64,000 bases of DNA from the sequence record MN101225.1. The stretch is one strand, 5' to 3'. The position numbers and the translations under genes are program-made. The notes beneath the pieces were generated by a model that saw only the letters and a program-made list of their open reading frames with translations, was not told where the DNA came from and did no database searches. Source of the DNA: Klebsiella phage KMI11. Shown here piece after piece: positions 2,867 to 60,710 of the stretch (the stretch's first letter is position 1; each line of letters starts with the position of its first letter).

Positions 2867-3874
2867 ATGTTTGCAAAATATTCTAGTCTCGAGAACCACT
2901 ACAACAATAAGTTCATCGAGAAGATTCGTGGTGCTGGTTTTGATATGCACACTGTTGAGTGGGTAGCTCGTGAGAAGATTCATGGCACTAACTTTAGTGT
3001 GATTATTACTCCTACCGAAATCGTTCCGGCTAAGCGTACTGGACCTATTTTAGAAAGTGAAAGTTTCTTTGGTCATGATATTATCATGAAGAAGTATAAG
3101 GATTCTTTCGTTAAGATGCAGAACATGCTGAACGCCATGGATTTAGTATCTGTTCAAATCTTCGGCGAATTTGCTGGCGGTGGTATTCAGAAAGGCGTAG
3201 ATTATGGTGAGAAAGATTTCTACGTATTTGATATCTTGTCGGATTCCGGTAACGAAAAAGTTTATTGGGACGATTATGTAGTAGAATCGTTTGCTACTGG
3301 TCTTGGTCTTAAATTGGCTCCACTGCTTGGTCGTGGTTCATTCGCTGAGCTATCTCAGTACGTAAATGACTTTAAATCTATTGTCAATTACTACAATGAA
3401 CTTGTTGACACGACTGACCTTGAACATGCAAATAAACATGTGTTCGGTCCACAGGCTTCTTCTGAAACTGGCGTAGCTGAAGGCTATGTTCTTAAGCCGG
3501 TTCATCCTAAGTTCTTCAATAATGGTACTCGTGTTGCTATTAAGTGTAAGAACTCTAAGTTCAGTGAGAAGGCTAAATCCGATAAGCCTATTAAAGCGAA
3601 GGTTGAACTCACCGAGAATGATAAGCGTGTTCTGGAAATCTTTTCTGAATATGTAACCTGGAACCGTGTAAGTAACGTTCTGTCTCATATTGGTACTGTA
3701 ACTGCTAAAGATTTCGGTCGTGTTATGGGTCTGACTATGAAAGATATCATTAACGAAGCAGCACGTGAAGGTCATGACATGCTATTCGCTGATAATCCTT
3801 CTGCTGTTAAGAAAGAAATCACTACTTTAATTCAAAACACTATTCGTAGTAAATGGCATGAGGTTTTAGAATAA
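2867..3874 (+). CDS. rnlB: RNA ligase 2 (Rnl2)
   Basis: Near-collinear with T4 Rnl2: MF(A/K)KYSSLENHYN, REKIHGTNFS lysine-adenylation motif, RVAIKCKNSKFSEK(A/K)KSDKPIKAKVEL. Length 335 aa versus 334 in T4. Confidence 0.9.
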   Translation: MFAKYSSLENHYNNKFIEKIRGAGFDMHTVEWVAREKIHGTNFSVIITPTEIVPAKRTGPILESESFFGHDIIMKKYKDSFVKMQNMLNAMDLVSVQIFGEFAGGGIQKGVDYGEKDFYVFDILSDSGNEKVYWDDYVVESFATGLGLKLAPLLGRGSFAELSQYVNDFKSIVNYYNELVDTTDLEHANKHVFGPQASSETGVAEGYVLKPVHPKFFNNGTRVAIKCKNSKFSEKAKSDKPIKAKVELTENDKRVLEIFSEYVTWNRVSNVLSHIGTVTAKDFGRVMGLTMKDIINEAAREGHDMLFADNPSAVKKEITTLIQNTIRSKWHEVLE

Positions 3875-34683: not shown

Positions 34684-35133
34684 ATGGCATATTCCGGCAA
34701 ATTCATGCCGCAGAATCTCCACAAATATAAAGGCGACTTCAGAAAGATTACTTATCGTTCTACGTGGGAACAGTACATGATGAGATGGTTAGATAACCAT
34801 CCTGATGTAGTTCAATGGAATTCGGAGGAGGTCGTAATACCTTACTTCAGCAATGCTGATGGAAAGAAACGCAGATATTTCATGGATTTCTGGGCTAAGT
34901 TTTCTAATGGTCAACAGTTCTTTTTTGAAGTTAAGCCGAAGAAAGAAACTAGACCTCCGGTCAAACCCACAAAGTTGACGACATCAGCGAAGAAACGGTA
35001 CATTGATGAAATTTACACTTGGTCTGTAAACGTTGATAAGTGGAAAGCAGCTCAAGCTACCGCCAACAAAATGGGTATAGAATTTAGGTTAATTACTGAA
35101 GATTCACTTAAAAAATTAGGATGGAAAGGCTGA
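34684..35133 (+). CDS. 4: head completion protein gp4
   Basis: MAYSGK..KITYRS.WE...[11 protein letters not shown]...PKKET match T4 gp4. 149 aa versus 150. Confidence 0.85.
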
Positions 35134-37304: not shown

Positions 37305-37992
<688 letters not shown>

Positions 37993-42823: not shown

Positions 42824-43273
42824 ATGGATATTGGTTCAGGTAGTTCATATCCATCATGTGCTTTGAGCAACTTTGCTCCTCATAAATTTATCTATGATGG
42901 CGTAGAATGTGCATCAATGGAGGGATTCTTGCAGTCCCTCAAATTTTCTTCGCCTGAAATGCAAGCACATGTATGTACATTAGTTGGTAAATCGGCTAAG
43001 TTCAAAGGTAAAAAGAAACGGTGGTGGCCAACTCAAACACTTTATTGGAAAGGCGTGCCAATCCATCGTGCTTCAGAAGCGTATCAGAATTTACTGACAG
43101 GAGCATACGATGCACTTAGTAAAAATGAAGGATTCAGAAAAGCTTTGGCTGCTACCCGGAATGCTACGCTCACTCACAGTATGGGCAAAAACAAAATTTC
43201 TGAAACGATTTTGACTGAACGCGAATTCTGTAATCAACTTTATCGTTTGAGAAATGCTATAAATAATCAGTAA
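42824..43273 (+). CDS. NADAR (YbiA-like) domain protein; predicted ADP-ribose N-glycosidase
   Basis: ALSNFAPHKFIYDGVECASMEGFLQSLKF and GFRKALAATRNATLTH follow the YbiA/NADAR pattern (LSNF...F..G..F.S.E..FQ..KF). ATGA overlap with the upstream ORF. Confidence 0.6.
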   Translation: MDIGSGSSYPSCALSNFAPHKFIYDGVECASMEGFLQSLKFSSPEMQAHVCTLVGKSAKFKGKKKRWWPTQTLYWKGVPIHRASEAYQNLLTGAYDALSKNEGFRKALAATRNATLTHSMGKNKISETILTEREFCNQLYRLRNAINNQ

Positions 43274-50440: not shown

Positions 50441-50974
50441 ATGAAACACTTAACTCCCATTTATTTGACCCTGATGCATGCTTTCAGAGACGCTGCAGAC
50501 AGACGATTGAATAATCCCAACTACAGTTTTTATGAACCGTCTTGCCTTATGCGAGAGTACGGTACCCTTCGTCTAGACGGTGGAAGACAAACCGGAAAGA
50601 CTGCAGCCTTATGTCAATTCGCTACCGATTGGTTGCTTGAAGATGGTTCGGTTATAATCTTATCTACTCGATACACACAATCATCTGAATTGATGGAAGG
50701 TATTCTACGAGAATATAATTCATCGCATTTAATTAATAAATTACCGGCTAACGAGATAGCTAAATCAATTGTTCCGATGACAATCAGGGAATTTCTATCC
50801 AATGATTCCTCTTACAAGTTTAGGGGAAGAAAGTTTGGAAGAGCATTAATTATCATTGAAGAACCAATGAAAGTTCCCGATATGATGAAGTTCTATGATA
50901 TGTACCAGGAAGCTATCAGATGGTCTATGCCTAATGATACCTTACCTTTATTTTTCGTGATAGGAATGCAATGA
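50441..50974 (+). CDS. P-loop containing hypothetical protein
   Basis: Walker-A-like GGRQTGKT and a hydrophobic acidic motif LIIIEEP. Confidence 0.45.
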   Translation: MKHLTPIYLTLMHAFRDAADRRLNNPNYSFYEPSCLMREYGTLRLDGGRQTGKTAALCQFATDWLLEDGSVIILSTRYTQSSELMEGILREYNSSHLINKLPANEIAKSIVPMTIREFLSNDSSYKFRGRKFGRALIIIEEPMKVPDMMKFYDMYQEAIRWSMPNDTLPLFFVIGMQ

Positions 50975-51763: not shown

Positions 51764-52126
51764 ATGAAAGCATATCAAATTCTTGAAGGTGAACTTAAAG
51801 GCACCATTTACATCGAAGATGGTGATGACGCACGAGTAATCGTTTCAAAAGTTCTTAAAGAAGATACTATTACGGATGCTGAAACTTTTTATGGCTACAA
51901 GGCTCGTGAAGTAGAAATTGAATACCAGCCAACGGTAAAAATTGAAGGCGGTCAGCACCTGAACGTTAACGTGCTGCGTCGCGAAACCCTGCTGGACGCG
52001 GTTGAGCATCCGGAAAAATATCCGCAGCTGACCATTCGTGTTTCTGGCTACGCGGTACGCTTCAACTCCCTGACGTCGGAACAGCAGCGCGACGTTATCG
52101 CTCGTACTTTCACAGAGGCACTATAA
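51764..52126 (+). CDS. autonomous glycyl-radical cofactor (GrcA/YfiD-like)
   Basis: The C-terminal ~60 aa ([55 protein letters not shown]) is nearly identical to E. coli GrcA, including the RVSGYAV glycyl radical motif. That segment is visibly GC-richer with E. coli-like codons. Confidence 0.75.
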
Positions 52127-52401
52127 TGTCAATTGAAGATATTAAAGGATATAAGCCACATACCGATGAAAAGATTGGTAAAGTGAATGCTATCAAAGAC
52201 GCAGAAGTCCGTCTTGGTCTTATCTTTACTGCTCTTGAAGAAGAGGCATTAATTAATTACCAAGTGTCAGTCAATGAACCTAAGCAGGTACTCGATGAAG
52301 CATACGAACGTATTGCCCAGATTCGTACAGCAAAACAGAAACTGAAGGAAGCTTCTATGTGGGCTTGCCGTGCAGTGTTCTGTCCAGAAGAAAAATATTA
52401 A
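52126..52401 (+). CDS. hypothetical protein
   Basis: 91-aa ORF. Confidence 0.4.
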   Translation: MSIEDIKGYKPHTDEKIGKVNAIKDAEVRLGLIFTALEEEALINYQVSVNEPKQVLDEAYERIAQIRTAKQKLKEASMWACRAVFCPEEKY

Positions 52402-52440
52402 AAAGTAGTTTACTTTCCTTACGGGCCATGATACTATGGC
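52401..52440 (+). promoter_or_regulatory. early promoter with its -10 inside an inverted repeat
   Basis: AAAAGTAGTTTAC...GGGCCAT-GATACT-ATGGCCC. -35 at 52408-52413 and TACTAT at 52432-52437. Confidence 0.5.
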
Positions 52441-52464
52441 CCTACAAATAAAGGAGAATGAACT

Positions 52465-52923
52465 ATGTCAACTAACCCAGAAGTATTCATTCGCAGAACT
52501 AAACTGCGTCGTAAGTTTGAGGAAGCTTTTCGCTCTTTGAATTTATCAGTTCGTGCCCGAGCTAAGGCTGAGGGCAAAGAGCCTTTCTTCACTAAGTACT
52601 CTGATCATTTGTTGGACCGTGCTATCCAACGTGAAATTGATGAAGAGTATGTATTCTCTGTTCTTTCCAAAATTCCTAATCATCTTAAAGAAATTAATGA
52701 ATTTTTAGCAATGCCTTGGCTTCCAATTGACCCAAAAGACATTGATGAAAATATCGAGTATAAGCCAATGCGGTTAGAAATTACGGATGGAAATCTGTGG
52801 CTAGGATTTACCATGGATATTCCAAGACCAGGAAAAGGACCTAGTATAAAGTGTCGTATGGCATTCGTTAATGATAAACGTTTGAAAGGTAAAATCAGCA
52901 CAAAAGTTATACACATTAATTGA
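52465..52923 (+). CDS. regB: RegB sequence-specific endoribonuclease
   Basis: EVFIRR.KLRR.FE..FR and HLLDRAIQREIDE.YVF and RLEITDGNLWLGFT are collinear with T4 RegB. 152 aa versus 153. Confidence 0.8.
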   Translation: MSTNPEVFIRRTKLRRKFEEAFRSLNLSVRARAKAEGKEPFFTKYSDHLLDRAIQREIDEEYVFSVLSKIPNHLKEINEFLAMPWLPIDPKDIDENIEYKPMRLEITDGNLWLGFTMDIPRPGKGPSIKCRMAFVNDKRLKGKISTKVIHIN

Positions 52924-52930
52924 GGTAAAC

Positions 52931-53476
52931 ATGAAAAAAGCGCTTATCGGTCTAATGGCCTTGTGTTCAACGGCCTTTGGGTCTGAGCCAACTTTCAGTA
53001 ATGTTCAACTTGACAACTTACATTACGCATATAATTTTGGTGAACAATATCAAAAATCCGGAAAGGAAAAATCTCCGCATAACCGATACGATAATAACGG
53101 CTTAGGATATATAATGGCTGCTATATCATGGAAAGAATCTTCGGCAGGAGCCAATTTAAAAGCAGGAAAGGGGCATCATTCTTATGGGGTTTTTCAAAAT
53201 TACTTACCCACCGTTAAGGCCAGAGCTAAACTGGAAGGTAAAAACCTTAGTGATTCTGAAATAAGAAAAATGCTTAAATCCAGACGTAATTCTGCGGAGT
53301 GGGCATATATTGAGCTTTCATATTGGTTAAATATACATAACGGCAATATGCGAAAAGCTCTTGCTAGTTATAACGCAGGATGGAATGTCAAAAGAGGAAA
53401 CTCTTATGCGTCAGATGTCCTAGAGAAAGCTCATTTCTTAAAGAAACATAAAATGCTACATATAAAGGTGGAATAA
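52931..53476 (+). CDS. secreted/periplasmic protein with an SLT-like (lytic transglycosylase) motif set
   Basis: Signal peptide MKKALIGLMALCSTAFG. ISWKESS...GVFQN and ASYNAGWN resemble the SLT ES...G(L/V)(M/F)Q...AYNAG motifs. Confidence 0.45.
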   Translation: MKKALIGLMALCSTAFGSEPTFSNVQLDNLHYAYNFGEQYQKSGKEKSPHNRYDNNGLGYIMAAISWKESSAGANLKAGKGHHSYGVFQNYLPTVKARAKLEGKNLSDSEIRKMLKSRRNSAEWAYIELSYWLNIHNGNMRKALASYNAGWNVKRGNSYASDVLEKAHFLKKHKMLHIKVE

Positions 53477-53796
53477 TGATAAAGTACGCCGCGCTTCTTG
53501 GATTAGTATTGGCATTCTCTGTTAATGCTGAAAATTCAATGTCGGATTCACTTCGTATTGCTAAAACATTTTGTAATACGAATTCTGAATGTGTTGATAT
53601 ATTAGCGCTTGAATTAGATTCGGCATTCAGCGATGGAGTAAAAGATTCACGTAGCCCGGCTCAGTGGACAACACTAATAAATCGTAAGGCTAAGAGCATG
53701 AAAGATTTATGTGTCAATGCTCCTAACGAAAATATATGTTTAATGTATCGTGACCAATTAATGGCTCGTTATATGTCAGGACTATCGTCAAAATGA
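53476..53796 (+). CDS. small secreted Cys-containing protein
   Basis: Signal peptide MIKYAALLGLVLAFSVNA and 4 Cys residues. Confidence 0.45.
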   Translation: MIKYAALLGLVLAFSVNAENSMSDSLRIAKTFCNTNSECVDILALELDSAFSDGVKDSRSPAQWTTLINRKAKSMKDLCVNAPNENICLMYRDQLMARYMSGLSSK

Positions 53797-54185
53797 AAAA
53801 AGCAGCTATTTTATTATGCTGTGCATTTTCAGTTAATGCCTGGGAAAAGCTCCCAGGCTATCCTGAACCTGTACTAGCGGCGCAGGGGACTAAAATAGAA
53901 AGCAACGGTCCATTCAAGAACAATATTGAAATAGCATTTGTGCCTAGTAGTAGAAAACTGCTAATGTCATTTTATAATTATCAAGATAAAGATGACCAGG
54001 TGATAGTTCCACATGTTGAGTATAATGCTCGCGGATGTGGAATGCAGAGTGACGGTGTTTCTGTTGATGGAGTAATGCATCCTAAAGAACAAGGAGTGCT
54101 GAACCCTATCCTTAATTGTAACAATGCTATATTTTTAAGAGTATACAATAATCTTAATGAATATGCAACATATAAAATTCCATAG
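53793..54185 (+). CDS. small secreted protein
   Basis: Signal peptide MKKAAILLCCAFSVNA. Confidence 0.45.
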   Translation: MKKAAILLCCAFSVNAWEKLPGYPEPVLAAQGTKIESNGPFKNNIEIAFVPSSRKLLMSFYNYQDKDDQVIVPHVEYNARGCGMQSDGVSVDGVMHPKEQGVLNPILNCNNAIFLRVYNNLNEYATYKIP

Positions 54186-54193
54186 GTGAATAA

Positions 54194-54661
54194 ATGATTA
54201 CTGGATATATTAAGGGTAATATTGTAGAATTATTCATGAAGCATGAATGCGATATCGCTCATGGGTGTAATTGCTTTACTACAATGGGTGCTGGTGTAGC
54301 AGGACAACTTGCTAAAGCATATCCTCCAATTCTCGATATTGACATCGATGAAGACCGTTATTATGACAACAATTTAGCTAAGCTTGGAACTCATACTCGA
54401 GCCATTCACAAAAAAGGCACTGCATATTGCTATAATTTGTATACTCAGTATGCTCCAGGTCCAAATGTTGATTACGGCGCAATTTTTAATGCATTCCATG
54501 AACTAAATTCTGGTCGTATTGTTTATAATCGTCCTCTATACATTCCAAAAATTGGAGCTGGTATTGCTGGCGGTGATTGGGAACTAATTGAGAAATTAAT
54601 CAATTTAGCAACACCTGATATTGACATTATGGTGGTAGAATATGAAGAAGCTAAAAGCTAA
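54194..54661 (+). CDS. macrodomain protein (TARG1/Poa1p/DarG-like ADP-ribose hydrolase fold)
   Basis: HGCNCFTTMGAGVAGQLAKAYP (NC..MG.G(I/V)A motif) and IPKIGAGIAGGDWE (compare TARG1 MPRIGCGLDRLQW). 155 aa. Confidence 0.6.
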   Translation: MITGYIKGNIVELFMKHECDIAHGCNCFTTMGAGVAGQLAKAYPPILDIDIDEDRYYDNNLAKLGTHTRAIHKKGTAYCYNLYTQYAPGPNVDYGAIFNAFHELNSGRIVYNRPLYIPKIGAGIAGGDWELIEKLINLATPDIDIMVVEYEEAKS

Positions 54662-54852
54662 ATCCGTCTTGTTAGAGGTAAATAGATGATTACTGAAGAG
54701 CAAAAAACTAAACTGTGGCAGTTGATTGACGATTATGCAGGTGCCGAGCAAGTAGTAGCTATTAGTGCCATTTACGGAAATGGTCTACCTGAAGAATACG
54801 ATGAACTCATTCGTTCTAAGAATGCTATTTCTGATTTTATGGAGACACTTTA

Positions 54853-55452
54853 ATGGCACAGCTTTATTTCAACTACGCGAGCATGAATGCAGGCAAATCG
54901 GCTAATCTTCTTACCGCGGCGCATAATTACAAAGAACGAGGAATGGGAACTCTCATTCTTAAACCTGCTATTGATACTCGTGATTCTGCCACCGAGGTAA
55001 CATCACGTATTGGTCTTCGTCATGAAGCTAATACAGTAGACGAATCTATTGATATCCTTGAGTTTTTCAAGTGGGCACAAACACAACGTGATATTCATTG
55101 TGTGTTCGTTGATGAAGCCCAATTTTTAACTACTGAGCATGTTGTTCAGCTGTGTAAGATTGTTGACCTGTATGATGTTCCGGTAATGGCATATGGTCTT
55201 CGCACTGATTTTCGCGGAGAGTTATTCGAAGGTTCTAAAGCACTGTTGGCTGTTGCTGATAAACTGGTCGAGCTTAAGGGGGTTTGCCATTGCGGCCGTA
55301 AAGCTACTATGGTTGCTCGTATTGATGAAAACGGAAATGCTATTACCGATGGTGAAGTAGTAGAACTTGGTGGTGAAGATAAGTATGTTTCTCTTTGCCG
55401 TAAGCATTGGTTTGAACTAATTGGTGTTTATAATGAAGCCAAGAACGTATAA
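54853..55452 (+). CDS. tk: thymidine kinase
   Basis: P-loop MNAGKSANLL, FVDEAQF, and a C-terminal zinc ribbon CHCGRKA...LCRKH. Confidence 0.9.
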   Translation: MAQLYFNYASMNAGKSANLLTAAHNYKERGMGTLILKPAIDTRDSATEVTSRIGLRHEANTVDESIDILEFFKWAQTQRDIHCVFVDEAQFLTTEHVVQLCKIVDLYDVPVMAYGLRTDFRGELFEGSKALLAVADKLVELKGVCHCGRKATMVARIDENGNAITDGEVVELGGEDKYVSLCRKHWFELIGVYNEAKNV

Positions 55453-55911
55453 CACTATCCTGATGCTAATCGTAGGTATGCTATTCATTTGGATTGCTGC
55501 AGCAGCGTCTGTACAAAGCGACAGACGAGAAGAAGCACAAAATCGTCTTGATTCTAGCTGTAAAGTATTAGCACAAGGTAAAGACTTTATTGCTAATATG
55601 AATGGGTGTTATATTAAACATGAGTAGCTTATTTGCCATAGCAAGTGGTATAGTACTAGTACTCATAATTGGATTCTTGCTGTACGTAATATTGCTTTCG
55701 TTGATGGTTTAATATGAAAAAATATGTGATGTGCTACCGTTGTCTTCATGTATATGATTACAACACTGCTCCAAAGACAGCTACCAAGCGTCTTAAGAAT
55801 AAAGAACCTGAATGCCCCAAATGTAAATGTAAGGTAATCTATTCATGAATATTAAATTTTTTAAATCAGGATTTTACTATCGTTGAGGTACTTTAACTTA
55901 GCGAGGTAATA

Positions 55912-56295
55912 ATGTCTAGAACAATTCGCCGTAAAGGCTGGCATGTAGTAAAATCTTCCAAATGGAACGATCAGAATAATAACGAATTTGCTTATATTAA
56001 AAGCTATAACGAATACGTTAAAACTCAGAAAGATAAAGAAACCCAACAGAAATATGTTGAACTGCGTATTTCTGAAAATCGGGAAAGACCGCTAGAGGCC
56101 AAGAAACTGATTGCTAAATCAAAGCGCGATGGATTCTGGAAAACTCTACGTTGGACCCGTTATGCTATGCCGATCCCACGTCTATTTCATAAAGCCGAAA
56201 TTAAACGCGCATTGAAGTATGACGAAGAATATAACTGGGACGAAGCTGGTGCTAGAACTATTGAGCAAGGCATCTGCGAATGGCTTTGGGATTAA
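55912..56295 (+). CDS. hypothetical basic protein
   Basis: 127-aa ORF with an AGCGAGGTAATAATG RBS. Confidence 0.45.
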   Translation: MSRTIRRKGWHVVKSSKWNDQNNNEFAYIKSYNEYVKTQKDKETQQKYVELRISENRERPLEAKKLIAKSKRDGFWKTLRWTRYAMPIPRLFHKAEIKRALKYDEEYNWDEAGARTIEQGICEWLWD

Positions 56296-59299: not shown

Positions 59300-59703
59300 C
59301 TACTAAGAAAAAACTTAGTATGAGCATTGTGAAACAGATGCCATTAGCTTCAGCCGAAAACATTAAATTCGCAATGATGGACCCGGAATCACGGGTACTA
59401 GGATATATCAATGCATTTCGCTGGAACAGACTTGACATTCAGGTGGCAATCATTAGCACAGGAATTGATTGGGCATTAGTTCCTATGTATGAAACAACAT
59501 TACGCGAAGAAACCTGTCGTGAGCAGCATCCTGATGGACAAGAGTATCATACTCATGAGGTAGTGTATTATTACACCAGTCAAAAAATTGGTAATGTTTA
59601 TCGTACATCAAAAAGAACTACAGATAAAACTCGAGCAGAAGAAGCCGCCAAGCGTTCTAATGCATTAGTTAAATTCGCTAAAGGGAATCATATTTACTTA
59701 TGA
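59281..59703 (+). CDS. hypothetical protein
   Basis: 140-aa ORF. Confidence 0.4.
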   Translation: MEIELVTTKKKLSMSIVKQMPLASAENIKFAMMDPESRVLGYINAFRWNRLDIQVAIISTGIDWALVPMYETTLREETCREQHPDGQEYHTHEVVYYYTSQKIGNVYRTSKRTTDKTRAEEAAKRSNALVKFAKGNHIYL

Positions 59704-60710
59704 AAACAATCGTAAAATCTTATTTTGGTTCACATCTGTATGGTACTTCAACTCCCGAGTCAGATGTGGATTTTAAAGAAATCTTTGTACCTCATCCGCG
59801 TGATATTCTGTTGTGTCAAGCGATGAATCATACTAATCGTAATACTAATAACAGCGCAACCAAAAATACGAAAGACGACGTCGACCATGAGCTGTTCAGC
59901 TTAAAGTATTTCTTCAAGCTCGCTGCTGACGGTGAAACTGTCGCGTTGGATATGCTGCATACTCCACCGGAATTGGTAGTTGCATCTGACCTTCCTGAAG
60001 TATGGAAATTCATTCAAGACAACCGAGCTCGTTTCTATACTACTGACATGAAGGCTTATCTTGGATATGTCCGTAAGCAAGCAGGTAAGTATGGCGTTAA
60101 GGGTTCTCGTTTAGCCGATTTACATAAAGTCCTGGATGTTATCAGAGATGTTCCTGAATGGAAATATGACGATCGTCCTCAGCAGAAGGGTATCAATGAG
60201 CGTTGGAAAGTACAGGATATCGCAGAGAAACTTCCTCTCGGTGAATTCCTCGAATGGACCACCTTCGTTGACCACAAATCAGGCGAGCAGAAGTTTTATA
60301 ACGTTCTGGGTCGTAAATTCCAGACGACTATCACTATCAAAGAGATGAAGTATTCTCTTGAGAAACTTGATGCTGAATATGGTGAACGTGCTCGTAAGGC
60401 AGAAGCTAACGAAGGCGTTGACTGGAAAGCACTGAGTCATGCTCTTCGTGCAGGTCTGCAGCTTCAGGAAATCTATATGACTGGTGACCTTCAATTCCCT
60501 CTGACCCATGCTAAAATGGTCAAGATGGTCAAAGCAGGTGAGTTACCGTTCAAAGAAGTACAGGAGCTTCTCGAGTCTGTAGTAGATGAAGTAGAAATTC
60601 TAGCTCATACTGCTGAAAAGAACGGAATGCCTAAGAAAGTAGACATGAAGTTCTGGGACGATTTCGTCGAGAAGGTTTATCTTGAAAACCACAATTCTTA
60701 CTACAAATGA
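59700..60710 (+). CDS. Pol-beta superfamily nucleotidyltransferase (cGAS/DncV-like GS..G..SDVD active-site motif)
   Basis: N-terminal GSHLYGTSTPESDVDF is a textbook h-G-S-x(n)-D-h-D NTase motif. A candidate third acidic residue sits in VALDML. The C-terminal half is alpha-helical, about 200 aa. Confidence 0.55.
   Translation: MKTIVKSYFGSHLYGTSTPESDVDFKEIFVPHPRDILLCQAMNHTNRNTNNSATKNTKDDVDHELFSLKYFFKLAADGETVALDMLHTPPELVVASDLPEVWKFIQDNRARFYTTDMKAYLGYVRKQAGKYGVKGSRLADLHKVLDVIRDVPEWKYDDRPQQKGINERWKVQDIAEKLPLGEFLEWTTFVDHKSGEQKFYNVLGRKFQTTITIKEMKYSLEKLDAEYGERARKAEANEGVDWKALSHALRAGLQLQEIYMTGDLQFPLTHAKMVKMVKAGELPFKEVQELLESVVDEVEILAHTAEKNGMPKKVDMKFWDDFVEKVYLENHNSYYK

Follow-up and report, generated by a model that had tools for sequence, protein, structure and literature searches.

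What does the small open reading frame between vs and tk of Klebsiella phage KMI11 encode, and which ADP-ribose linkage, if any, would its product remove? The window analysed here is the whole 64,000-nucleotide stretch of record MN101225.1, to which all coordinates refer. The original prediction assigned both macro motifs to the 155-residue product of this frame, and both are present in the following arrangement.

54194..54661, + strand: stand-alone macrodomain coding sequence of 155 residues, ATG start and TAA stop, ortholog of T4 tk.4 (adfM)
54184..54189, + strand: Shine-Dalgarno sequence AGGTGA, read from the sequence, 4 nt before the ATG
54260..54304, + strand: motif 1, HGCNCFTTMGAGVAG (residues 23-37), distal-ribose/phosphate-binding loop with the invariant His23, Gly24 and Asn26
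54269..54271, + strand: codon of Asn26, equivalent to DarG Asn22 and SCO6735 Asn27 in an alignment with solved macrodomains
54446..54448, + strand: codon of Gln85, in the invariant N-L-Y-T-Q motif
54542..54583, + strand: motif 2, IPKIGAGIAGGDWE (residues 117-130), diphosphate-binding glycine loop

All 155 codons are open on the + strand, and many stops interrupt the reverse strand. The TAG stop codon of the preceding ORF (54183..54185) overlaps the Shine-Dalgarno sequence of the macrodomain gene. A homology search found 627 clusters of homologous proteins (E<=1e-3), including one 100%-identical cluster of 277 members, and by tblastn 2835 of the 50,697 phage records contain a Tk.4-type homolog. 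Given this large set of homologs, the gene is real beyond chance, and thousands of phage genomes carry similar genes, as judged by sequence similarity. The region 53000..56000 shares 99.8% identity with Klebsiella phage JD18 and at least 99% with many Klebsiella T4-like phages, in whose records the same gene is labelled “hypothetical protein”, “phosphatase” or “macro-like domain protein”. The protein also matches PHROG 335 (“phosphatase”) with an E-value of 2.7e-56.

The single sequence scores 21.3 bits against Pfam Macro (PF01661), just under the cut-off of 22, with a match confined to 31 N-terminal residues (23-53); a precomputed PF01661 match exists for about half of the listed homologs. 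A family profile of 51 members, searched against the solved macrodomain structures, matches six of them over the full length with E-values from 4e-20 to 9e-12: BT1257 (3.8e-20), TARG1 (5.6e-17), SCO6735 (3e-16), Poa1p (1.7e-14), Mycobacterium tuberculosis DarG (6e-13) and Thermus aquaticus DarG (9e-12). The motifs were expected to align to the macro fold in profile searches, which holds for the family profile and narrowly fails for the single sequence in Pfam. An AlphaFold2 model, computed from 50 homologs with the T4 sequence left out, has a pLDDT of 91.8 and a pTM of 0.88. Foldseek places Poa1p, TARG1, BT1257, the DarG macrodomains and SCO6735 at the top ranks for this model, with TM-scores of 0.72-0.78. 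The full-length matches to solved macrodomains reveal the three-layer α/β/α macro fold with its ADP-ribose cleft, which is nearer to the ALC1/TARG1-like class than to the MacroD, viral or PARG classes. Altogether, family profile and structural model identify the protein as a predicted macrodomain of the ALC1/TARG1-like class, bearing out the assignment to the TARG1/Poa1p/DarG group.

Yeast Poa1p is the best PDB match by single sequence (1e-6) as well as the best Foldseek match (1.7e-10, TM-score 0.78), and it carries the H-x-C-N-C motif at the same residue numbers as the window protein. In the metabolism of tRNA splicing, Poa1p is a phosphatase for a small molecule, ADP-ribose-1''-phosphate. 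By analogy, the window protein might be an ADP-ribose-1''-phosphate phosphatase or an O-acetyl-ADP-ribose deacetylase, cleaning up the by-products of RNA repair or of NAD-consuming defence. The labels of its relatives (“phosphatase” or “O-acetyl-ADP-ribose deacetylase”) point the same way, as do the NUDIX genes that adjoin two bacterial homologs and two RNA-repair genes in the window.

59700..60710, + strand: RlaP-family RNA-repair nucleotidyltransferase (4.2e-14)
2867..3874, + strand: RNA ligase 2

Nevertheless, we consider a small-molecule substrate improbable. The “phosphatase” annotation derives from the motif only, and a weak Appr-1''-p phosphatase side reaction is seen in many macrodomains. 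To our knowledge, no 2'-phosphate remains after T4-type RNA repair by Pnkp/Rnl, which hence yields no Appr>p. Moreover, the single known phenotype of an ortholog is sensitivity to DarTG2 (bioRxiv 10.1101/2025.11.20.689424).

That ortholog is Tk.4 of phage T4 (NP_049723), also of 155 residues, which shares 46% identity and 68% positives with the window protein (E 7e-47 over 152 of the 155 residues) and is described in the T4 record as “phosphatase; contains A1pp phosphatase motif”. The motifs AHGCNC, NLYTQ and P[KR]IGAGI..W are invariant in both proteins, whereas 54% of the residues differ, and the host of the window phage is Klebsiella. In T4, tk.4 immediately follows vs and precedes tk.3-tk.1 and tk. 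The order regB-vs.1-vs-tk.4-...-tk is conserved in the window, with one additional ORF between vs and the macrodomain gene.

52465..52923: regB (Pfam REGB_T4, 1.6e-65)
52931..53476: vs.1, assigned by its size (181 residues) and position, which match T4 vs.1
53476..53796: vs, 31% identity to T4 Vs
53793..54185, + strand: additional ORF of 130 residues with a signal-peptide-like N-terminus, MKKAAILLCCAFSVNAWE
54686..54853: small ORF, DUF7438
54853..55452: tk (Pfam TK, 4.9e-56)

By sequence and position, the macrodomain gene is the ortholog of T4 tk.4/adfM. Compared to the window, the T4 region is without the 130-residue ORF and has tk.3-tk.1 in place of the single DUF7438 ORF. The 130-residue ORF gave no Pfam match and does not resemble T4 Vs, and T4 has no such ORF at this position; the Vs ortholog beside it bears a similar leader (…AFSVNAEN). 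A scan of 52300..55600 gave 7 promoter-like sequences against 10.6 expected and 2 terminator-like sequences against 2.0 expected, and the macrodomain gene is presumably early, as its synteny with T4 suggests. In Klebsiella phage Roth01, the regB annotation consists of two CDS that overlap, as if the gene were frameshifted or split, whereas the RegB of the window is intact, with 152 residues.

What the T4 ortholog does is already known from the preprint literature, and the macrodomain reading of the window gene is correct in substance. DarT1 modifies guanosine, a reaction reversed by NADAR proteins, namely DarG1 and the phage protein AdfN, which is T4 gp30.3; thymidine is modified by DarT2, and this mark is reversed by the DarG2 macrodomain (PMC11825919, LeRoux lab). 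The original prediction had attributed thymine ADP-ribosylation to DarT1, which is the wrong enzyme, as the mark is made by DarT2 (PMC11825919). T4 without both adfA and adfN still shows full resistance to DarTG2 (PMC11825919). In a T4 transposon library grown on a DarTG2 host (HIDEN-SEQ), tk.4 was the single significant gene, and a clean knockout of tk.4 turned T4 sensitive to DarTG2; the gene was accordingly named adfM, for anti-DarT factor Macrodomain (Humolli et al., preprint dated 20 Nov 2025, bioRxiv 10.1101/2025.11.20.689424). Enzymatic removal of ADP-ribose by T4 Tk.4 “seems likely” according to the same preprint, on genetic support (bioRxiv 10.1101/2025.11.20.689424).

How such an enzyme might work is indicated by its active site. 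The window protein and T4 Tk.4 were aligned with the solved macrodomains, taken from PDB alignments, as well as with PhiPA3 gp108 and a PhiKZ-like phage macrodomain. The columns of this alignment recover all of the published catalytic residues: Asn22 and Lys80 of DarG, Lys84 and Asp125 of TARG1, Val25, Asn27, Gln85 and Gly128 of SCO6735, and Asn23 and Lys78 of the chimallivirus protein. Asn26 of the window protein occupies the column of the conserved asparagine, and Gly123 corresponds to SCO6735 Gly128. The catalytic Lys and Asp of DarG and TARG1, to which the original prediction had drawn attention, are both missing. Gln85 stands at the position of the lysine in DarG (Lys80), TARG1 (Lys84) and chimallivirus AdfM (Lys78), and is matched by Gln85 of SCO6735, Gln82 of BT1257 and Gln84 of T4 Tk.4, whereas Ala125 replaces TARG1 Asp125. 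His23, Gly24, Asn26, Asn81, Tyr83 and Gln85 are invariant in 120 family representatives, save one truncated entry.

In SCO6735, the glutamine is positioned by the conserved asparagine, and a role is also described for Gly128; the Q85A mutant is inactive and N27S nearly so (PMC9411070). SCO6735 was also the most efficient of three enzymes tested on ADPr-dT-DNA (PMC9411070). Superposed on these residues in the alignment, Gln85, Asn26 and Gly123 of the window protein match Gln85, Asn27 and Gly128 of SCO6735, in addition to two local differences. Gly24 replaces SCO6735 Val25, so that neither Val nor Ile is found at this position, and the extended mobile loop bearing Lys89 and Lys94 in SCO6735 is missing, the window protein being five residues shorter than SCO6735 after Gln85 and six residues shorter than BT1257. 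Because Gln85 and Asn26 are arranged as in SCO6735, the Tk.4 family has a Gln-type active site instead of a Lys or Lys/Asp one. The active site of T4-type AdfM is, as judged by these aligned residues, of the SCO6735/BT1257 type, a point that goes beyond the literature. Given a Gln-type site, catalytic mutants of T4-type AdfM should be aimed at Asn26 and Gln85, not at a lysine.

The absence of the canonical catalytic Lys and Asp could be read differently, with the Lys-to-Gln exchange as the mark of a protein that only binds, and that protects the phage by blocking DarT2 directly or by sequestering ADP-ribose molecules. Precedents exist in AdfA and AdfB, which are direct inhibitors of DarT, and in the dead Q85A mutant of SCO6735, which remains an inhibitor of DarT in vitro through “interaction-inhibition” (PMC9411070). 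Yet the pair that is essential for catalysis in SCO6735 (PMC9411070), Gln85 and Asn26 in the window protein, is invariant across the 120 representatives, and the 155-residue protein consists of the macrodomain only, with no counterpart of the C-terminal DarT-binding domain of DarG. Protection by binding alone would thus seem an unlikely role.

A protein or RNA substrate has to be weighed as well. Editing of Alt/ModA/ModB marks had already been put forward from reading the sequence, and the phage's own transferases would be their source. Such transferases make arginine-linked ADP-ribose, a linkage that ALC1/TARG1-like macrodomains are not known to cleave, and no Alt/Mod gene was found among the window ORFs scanned. 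On account of both the linkage chemistry and the absence of such a gene among these ORFs, we rejected this alternative, which found no support. In a broader form, the protein might de-ADP-ribosylate other proteins or RNA, or reverse other ADP-ribosylating defences such as the mRNA-modifying CmdTAC, and indeed TARG1 and SCO6735 also de-modify Glu/Asp-linked proteins (PMC9411070). However, CmdTAC strongly restricts T4 despite Tk.4 (PMC11618068), and tk.4 is non-essential without DarTG2 and, of the hosts screened, scored on the DarTG2 host alone (bioRxiv 10.1101/2025.11.20.689424). We therefore give this possibility, Alt/ModA/ModB editing included, a low probability.

The companion of the macrodomain gene is found upstream, in a region that also includes two anti-CBASS genes.

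37537..37992, + strand: Acb1, anti-CBASS (Pfam Acb1, 1.8e-61)
42824..43273, + strand: AdfN/gp30.3 (NADAR) ortholog, anti-DarTG1 type (Pfam Phage_30_3, 4.6e-56)
52126..52401, + strand: Acb2/Vs.4-type sponge, anti-CBASS (Pfam Acb2_Tad1_hairpin, 5.3e-17)

The AdfN ortholog shares 41% identity with T4 gp30.3 over the full length and keeps the equivalents of the catalytic Glu36 and Lys43 as Glu33 and Lys40; compared to RB69 gp30.3, which is truncated, it is full length. As the window holds orthologs of both T4 Tk.4 and AdfN/gp30.3, candidate erasers for both DNA ADP-ribose linkages are present, in agreement with what had been predicted from the sequence. Acb1, Acb2, AdfN and AdfM together place four counter-defence genes within ~17 kb of one early region.

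Three further ORFs of this region deserve mention in their own right. A 149-residue ORF with a TnsA-like endonuclease N-terminal domain (34684..35133, + strand, 1.1e-23) opens the early block of the + strand. A 177-residue ORF (50441..50974, + strand) has a weak match to Terminase_6N (8.3e-6), which represents the ATPase at the N-terminus of large terminases of the T4 type; its counterpart in Roth01 is labelled “terminase large subunit”, for which it is far too short, and it sits among early genes. A 120-residue protein (51764..52126, + strand) resembles the autonomous glycyl-radical cofactor GrcA, with an RVSGY motif (Pfam Gly_radical, 9e-18), and is the counterpart of T4 vs.6.

Building on the reading frame, fold, orthology, synteny and active-site conservation observed in the window, we propose that the early macrodomain acts as a free enzyme that hydrolyses the thymidine-linked ADP-ribose made by DarT2 on single-stranded phage DNA, by means of Asn26 and Gln85, and that it complements AdfN. 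Expressed among co-directional early-region genes, the gene would give rise to a free 155-residue macrodomain. Once a host DarTG2-type system is triggered, DarT2 would ADP-ribosylate thymidines in the single-stranded phage DNA, and the two glycine-rich loops of the macrodomain protein would bind the ADP-ribose moiety. Hydrolysis of the thymine N3-ribose bond would then release ADP-ribose and restore a replicable DNA. Catalysis is probably lysine-independent, with Asn26 holding Gln85 and Gln85 orienting the distal ribose as in SCO6735, and water might serve as the nucleophile and/or proton donor. AdfN (gp30.3) would take off the guanine adducts, so that both DarT chemistries would be covered.

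We regard this mechanism as the probable one. SCO6735, which has the same Gln/Asn arrangement, cleaves ADPr-dT-DNA (PMC9411070), and a similar hydrolysis would be expected of the window protein and of T4 Tk.4; the 46%-identical ortholog would presumably meet the same target in Klebsiella. Several points weigh against it. The window protein has neither the catalytic lysine found in DarG2, TARG1 and chimallivirus AdfM nor the extended, Lys-bearing mobile loop that serves for DNA in SCO6735; an identity of 46% to T4 Tk.4 leaves room for a shifted specificity; and the T4 tk.4 phenotype is genetic and comes from a preprint.

Is the protein then an antitoxin captured from a bacterial DarTG2 system? 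Against the NCBIfam DarG model (NF048014) it scores 18.3 bits, which does not reach the equivalog cut-off of 250, and the PADLOC DarG model matches at 7.7e-5. No adjacent darT (DUF4433) was found, the neighbours being the 130-residue ORF, the DUF7438 ORF and tk. With no DarT-binding domain, no neighbouring DarT, Lys80 absent and a low NCBIfam score, membership in the DarG family was rejected. The Tk.4-type bacterial relatives (80 loci, 31-44% identity) are likewise free-standing, of ~150 residues, with HGCNC and NxYTQ motifs, and occur in Desulfobacter, Ruegeria, Pseudoalteromonas, Bacteroidota, Verrucomicrobiota and others, many of them environmental. A survey of these 80 loci, in which 124 neighbour ORFs were scanned and the 25 commonest neighbour families listed, found housekeeping genes as the immediate neighbours, in addition to NADAR genes at two loci and NUDIX genes at two. 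In Desulfobacter-type genomes, the Tk.4-like gene recurrently lies beside a semialdehyde dehydrogenase gene. No DarT/DUF4433 was present among the 25 commonest neighbour families, and an “orphan DarG antitoxin” origin of the Tk.4 clade was rejected on this ground; as a control, plasmid DarG2-type genes do adjoin DUF4433. The plasmid search for DarTG2 retrieved Citrobacter and E. coli, with no Klebsiella in the ten commonest genera or the 25 matches listed, and the literature search found no figure for the prevalence of DarTG2 in Klebsiella.

The low identity to DarG2 and the bacterial relatives, with no DarT among their 25 commonest neighbour families, set the Tk.4 clade apart from DarG2. T4-type AdfM does not have the look of a DarG2 antitoxin that was captured recently; it is predicted to work like DarG2 and, by its sequence, belongs outside the DarG2 family. 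As the bacterial relatives are not linked to DarT, repair of DarT damage to DNA need not be the ancestral role of the clade. More speculatively, T4-type AdfM, found in at least 2835 phage records, may represent a stand-alone, lysine-independent Gln-type lineage (SCO6735/BT1257/Poa1p-like) that was recruited independently and is not a captured DarG2, an idea that we put forward as doubtful, if somewhat less so than the alternative activities weighed above. If it were true, the substrate range might be wider than that of DarG2, extending for example to variants of DarT2 that have diverged, to Glu/Asp-linked proteins or to ADP-ribose linked to nucleic acids through phosphate, and the 46%-identical Klebsiella copy might be tuned to targets beyond the E. 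coli DarTG2 of the T4 work.

The JD18-like phages of Klebsiella, which are considered for use in phage therapy, thus carry the T-even pair of predicted DNA de-ADP-ribosylases, AdfN for guanine and AdfM for thymine adducts, which should help to predict their host range on DarTG strains. The assignment also corrects a misleading “phosphatase” label in many phage genomes. What it adds to the literature is modest: the Gln-type character of the active site, and the existence of two clades, not orthologous, that both go by the name “AdfM”.

Compared to the known systems, the window protein is closest to T4 Tk.4 (46% identity), followed by BT1257 and SCO6735 (24-26%), TARG1 (22%), DarG (20-21%) and chimallivirus AdfM (16-17%). 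SCO6735 of Streptomyces coelicolor (PDB 5E3B) and BT1257 of Bacteroides (PDB 2FG1/2AFC) are likewise stand-alone Gln-type ALC1-like macrodomains, but differ in that the window protein is phage-encoded and has the shorter loop. Human TARG1/OARD1 belongs to the same class, but uses the Lys84/Asp125 dyad where the window protein has Gln85 and Ala125. DarG2 (PDB 5M31/5M3E for T. aquaticus, 5M3I for M. tuberculosis) shares the asparagine, its Asn22 being aligned with Asn26, whereas its Lys80 corresponds to Gln85. The chimallivirus protein PhiKZ gp104, with its counterpart PhiPA3 gp108, was independently named AdfM (Cell Reports 2026, PMC13309987). It is also a phage-encoded free macrodomain that counters DarTG2, and it strips DarT2-made ADP-ribose off DNA in vitro (PMC13309987). 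It differs, however, in belonging to a DarG2-like clade with Lys78 and in being imported into the phage nucleus (PMC13309987). Of its Asn23/Lys78 pair, the window protein keeps the asparagine and has glutamine for the lysine. In the same alignment, chimallivirus AdfM shares 32-38% identity with DarG, whereas the T4 Tk.4-type (Gln84) and chimallivirus gp104-type (Lys78) macrodomains share 16-19%. A DarG2 query retrieved 291 phage records, including chimalliviruses, N4-like phages and Thermus phage phiMa, compared to the 2835 with Tk.4-type homologs, and no T4-like phages were among the 40 spread matches listed for it. Altogether, these comparisons indicate that the two “AdfM” groups are analogues within one macrodomain class, not orthologs, and that the name has been coined twice.
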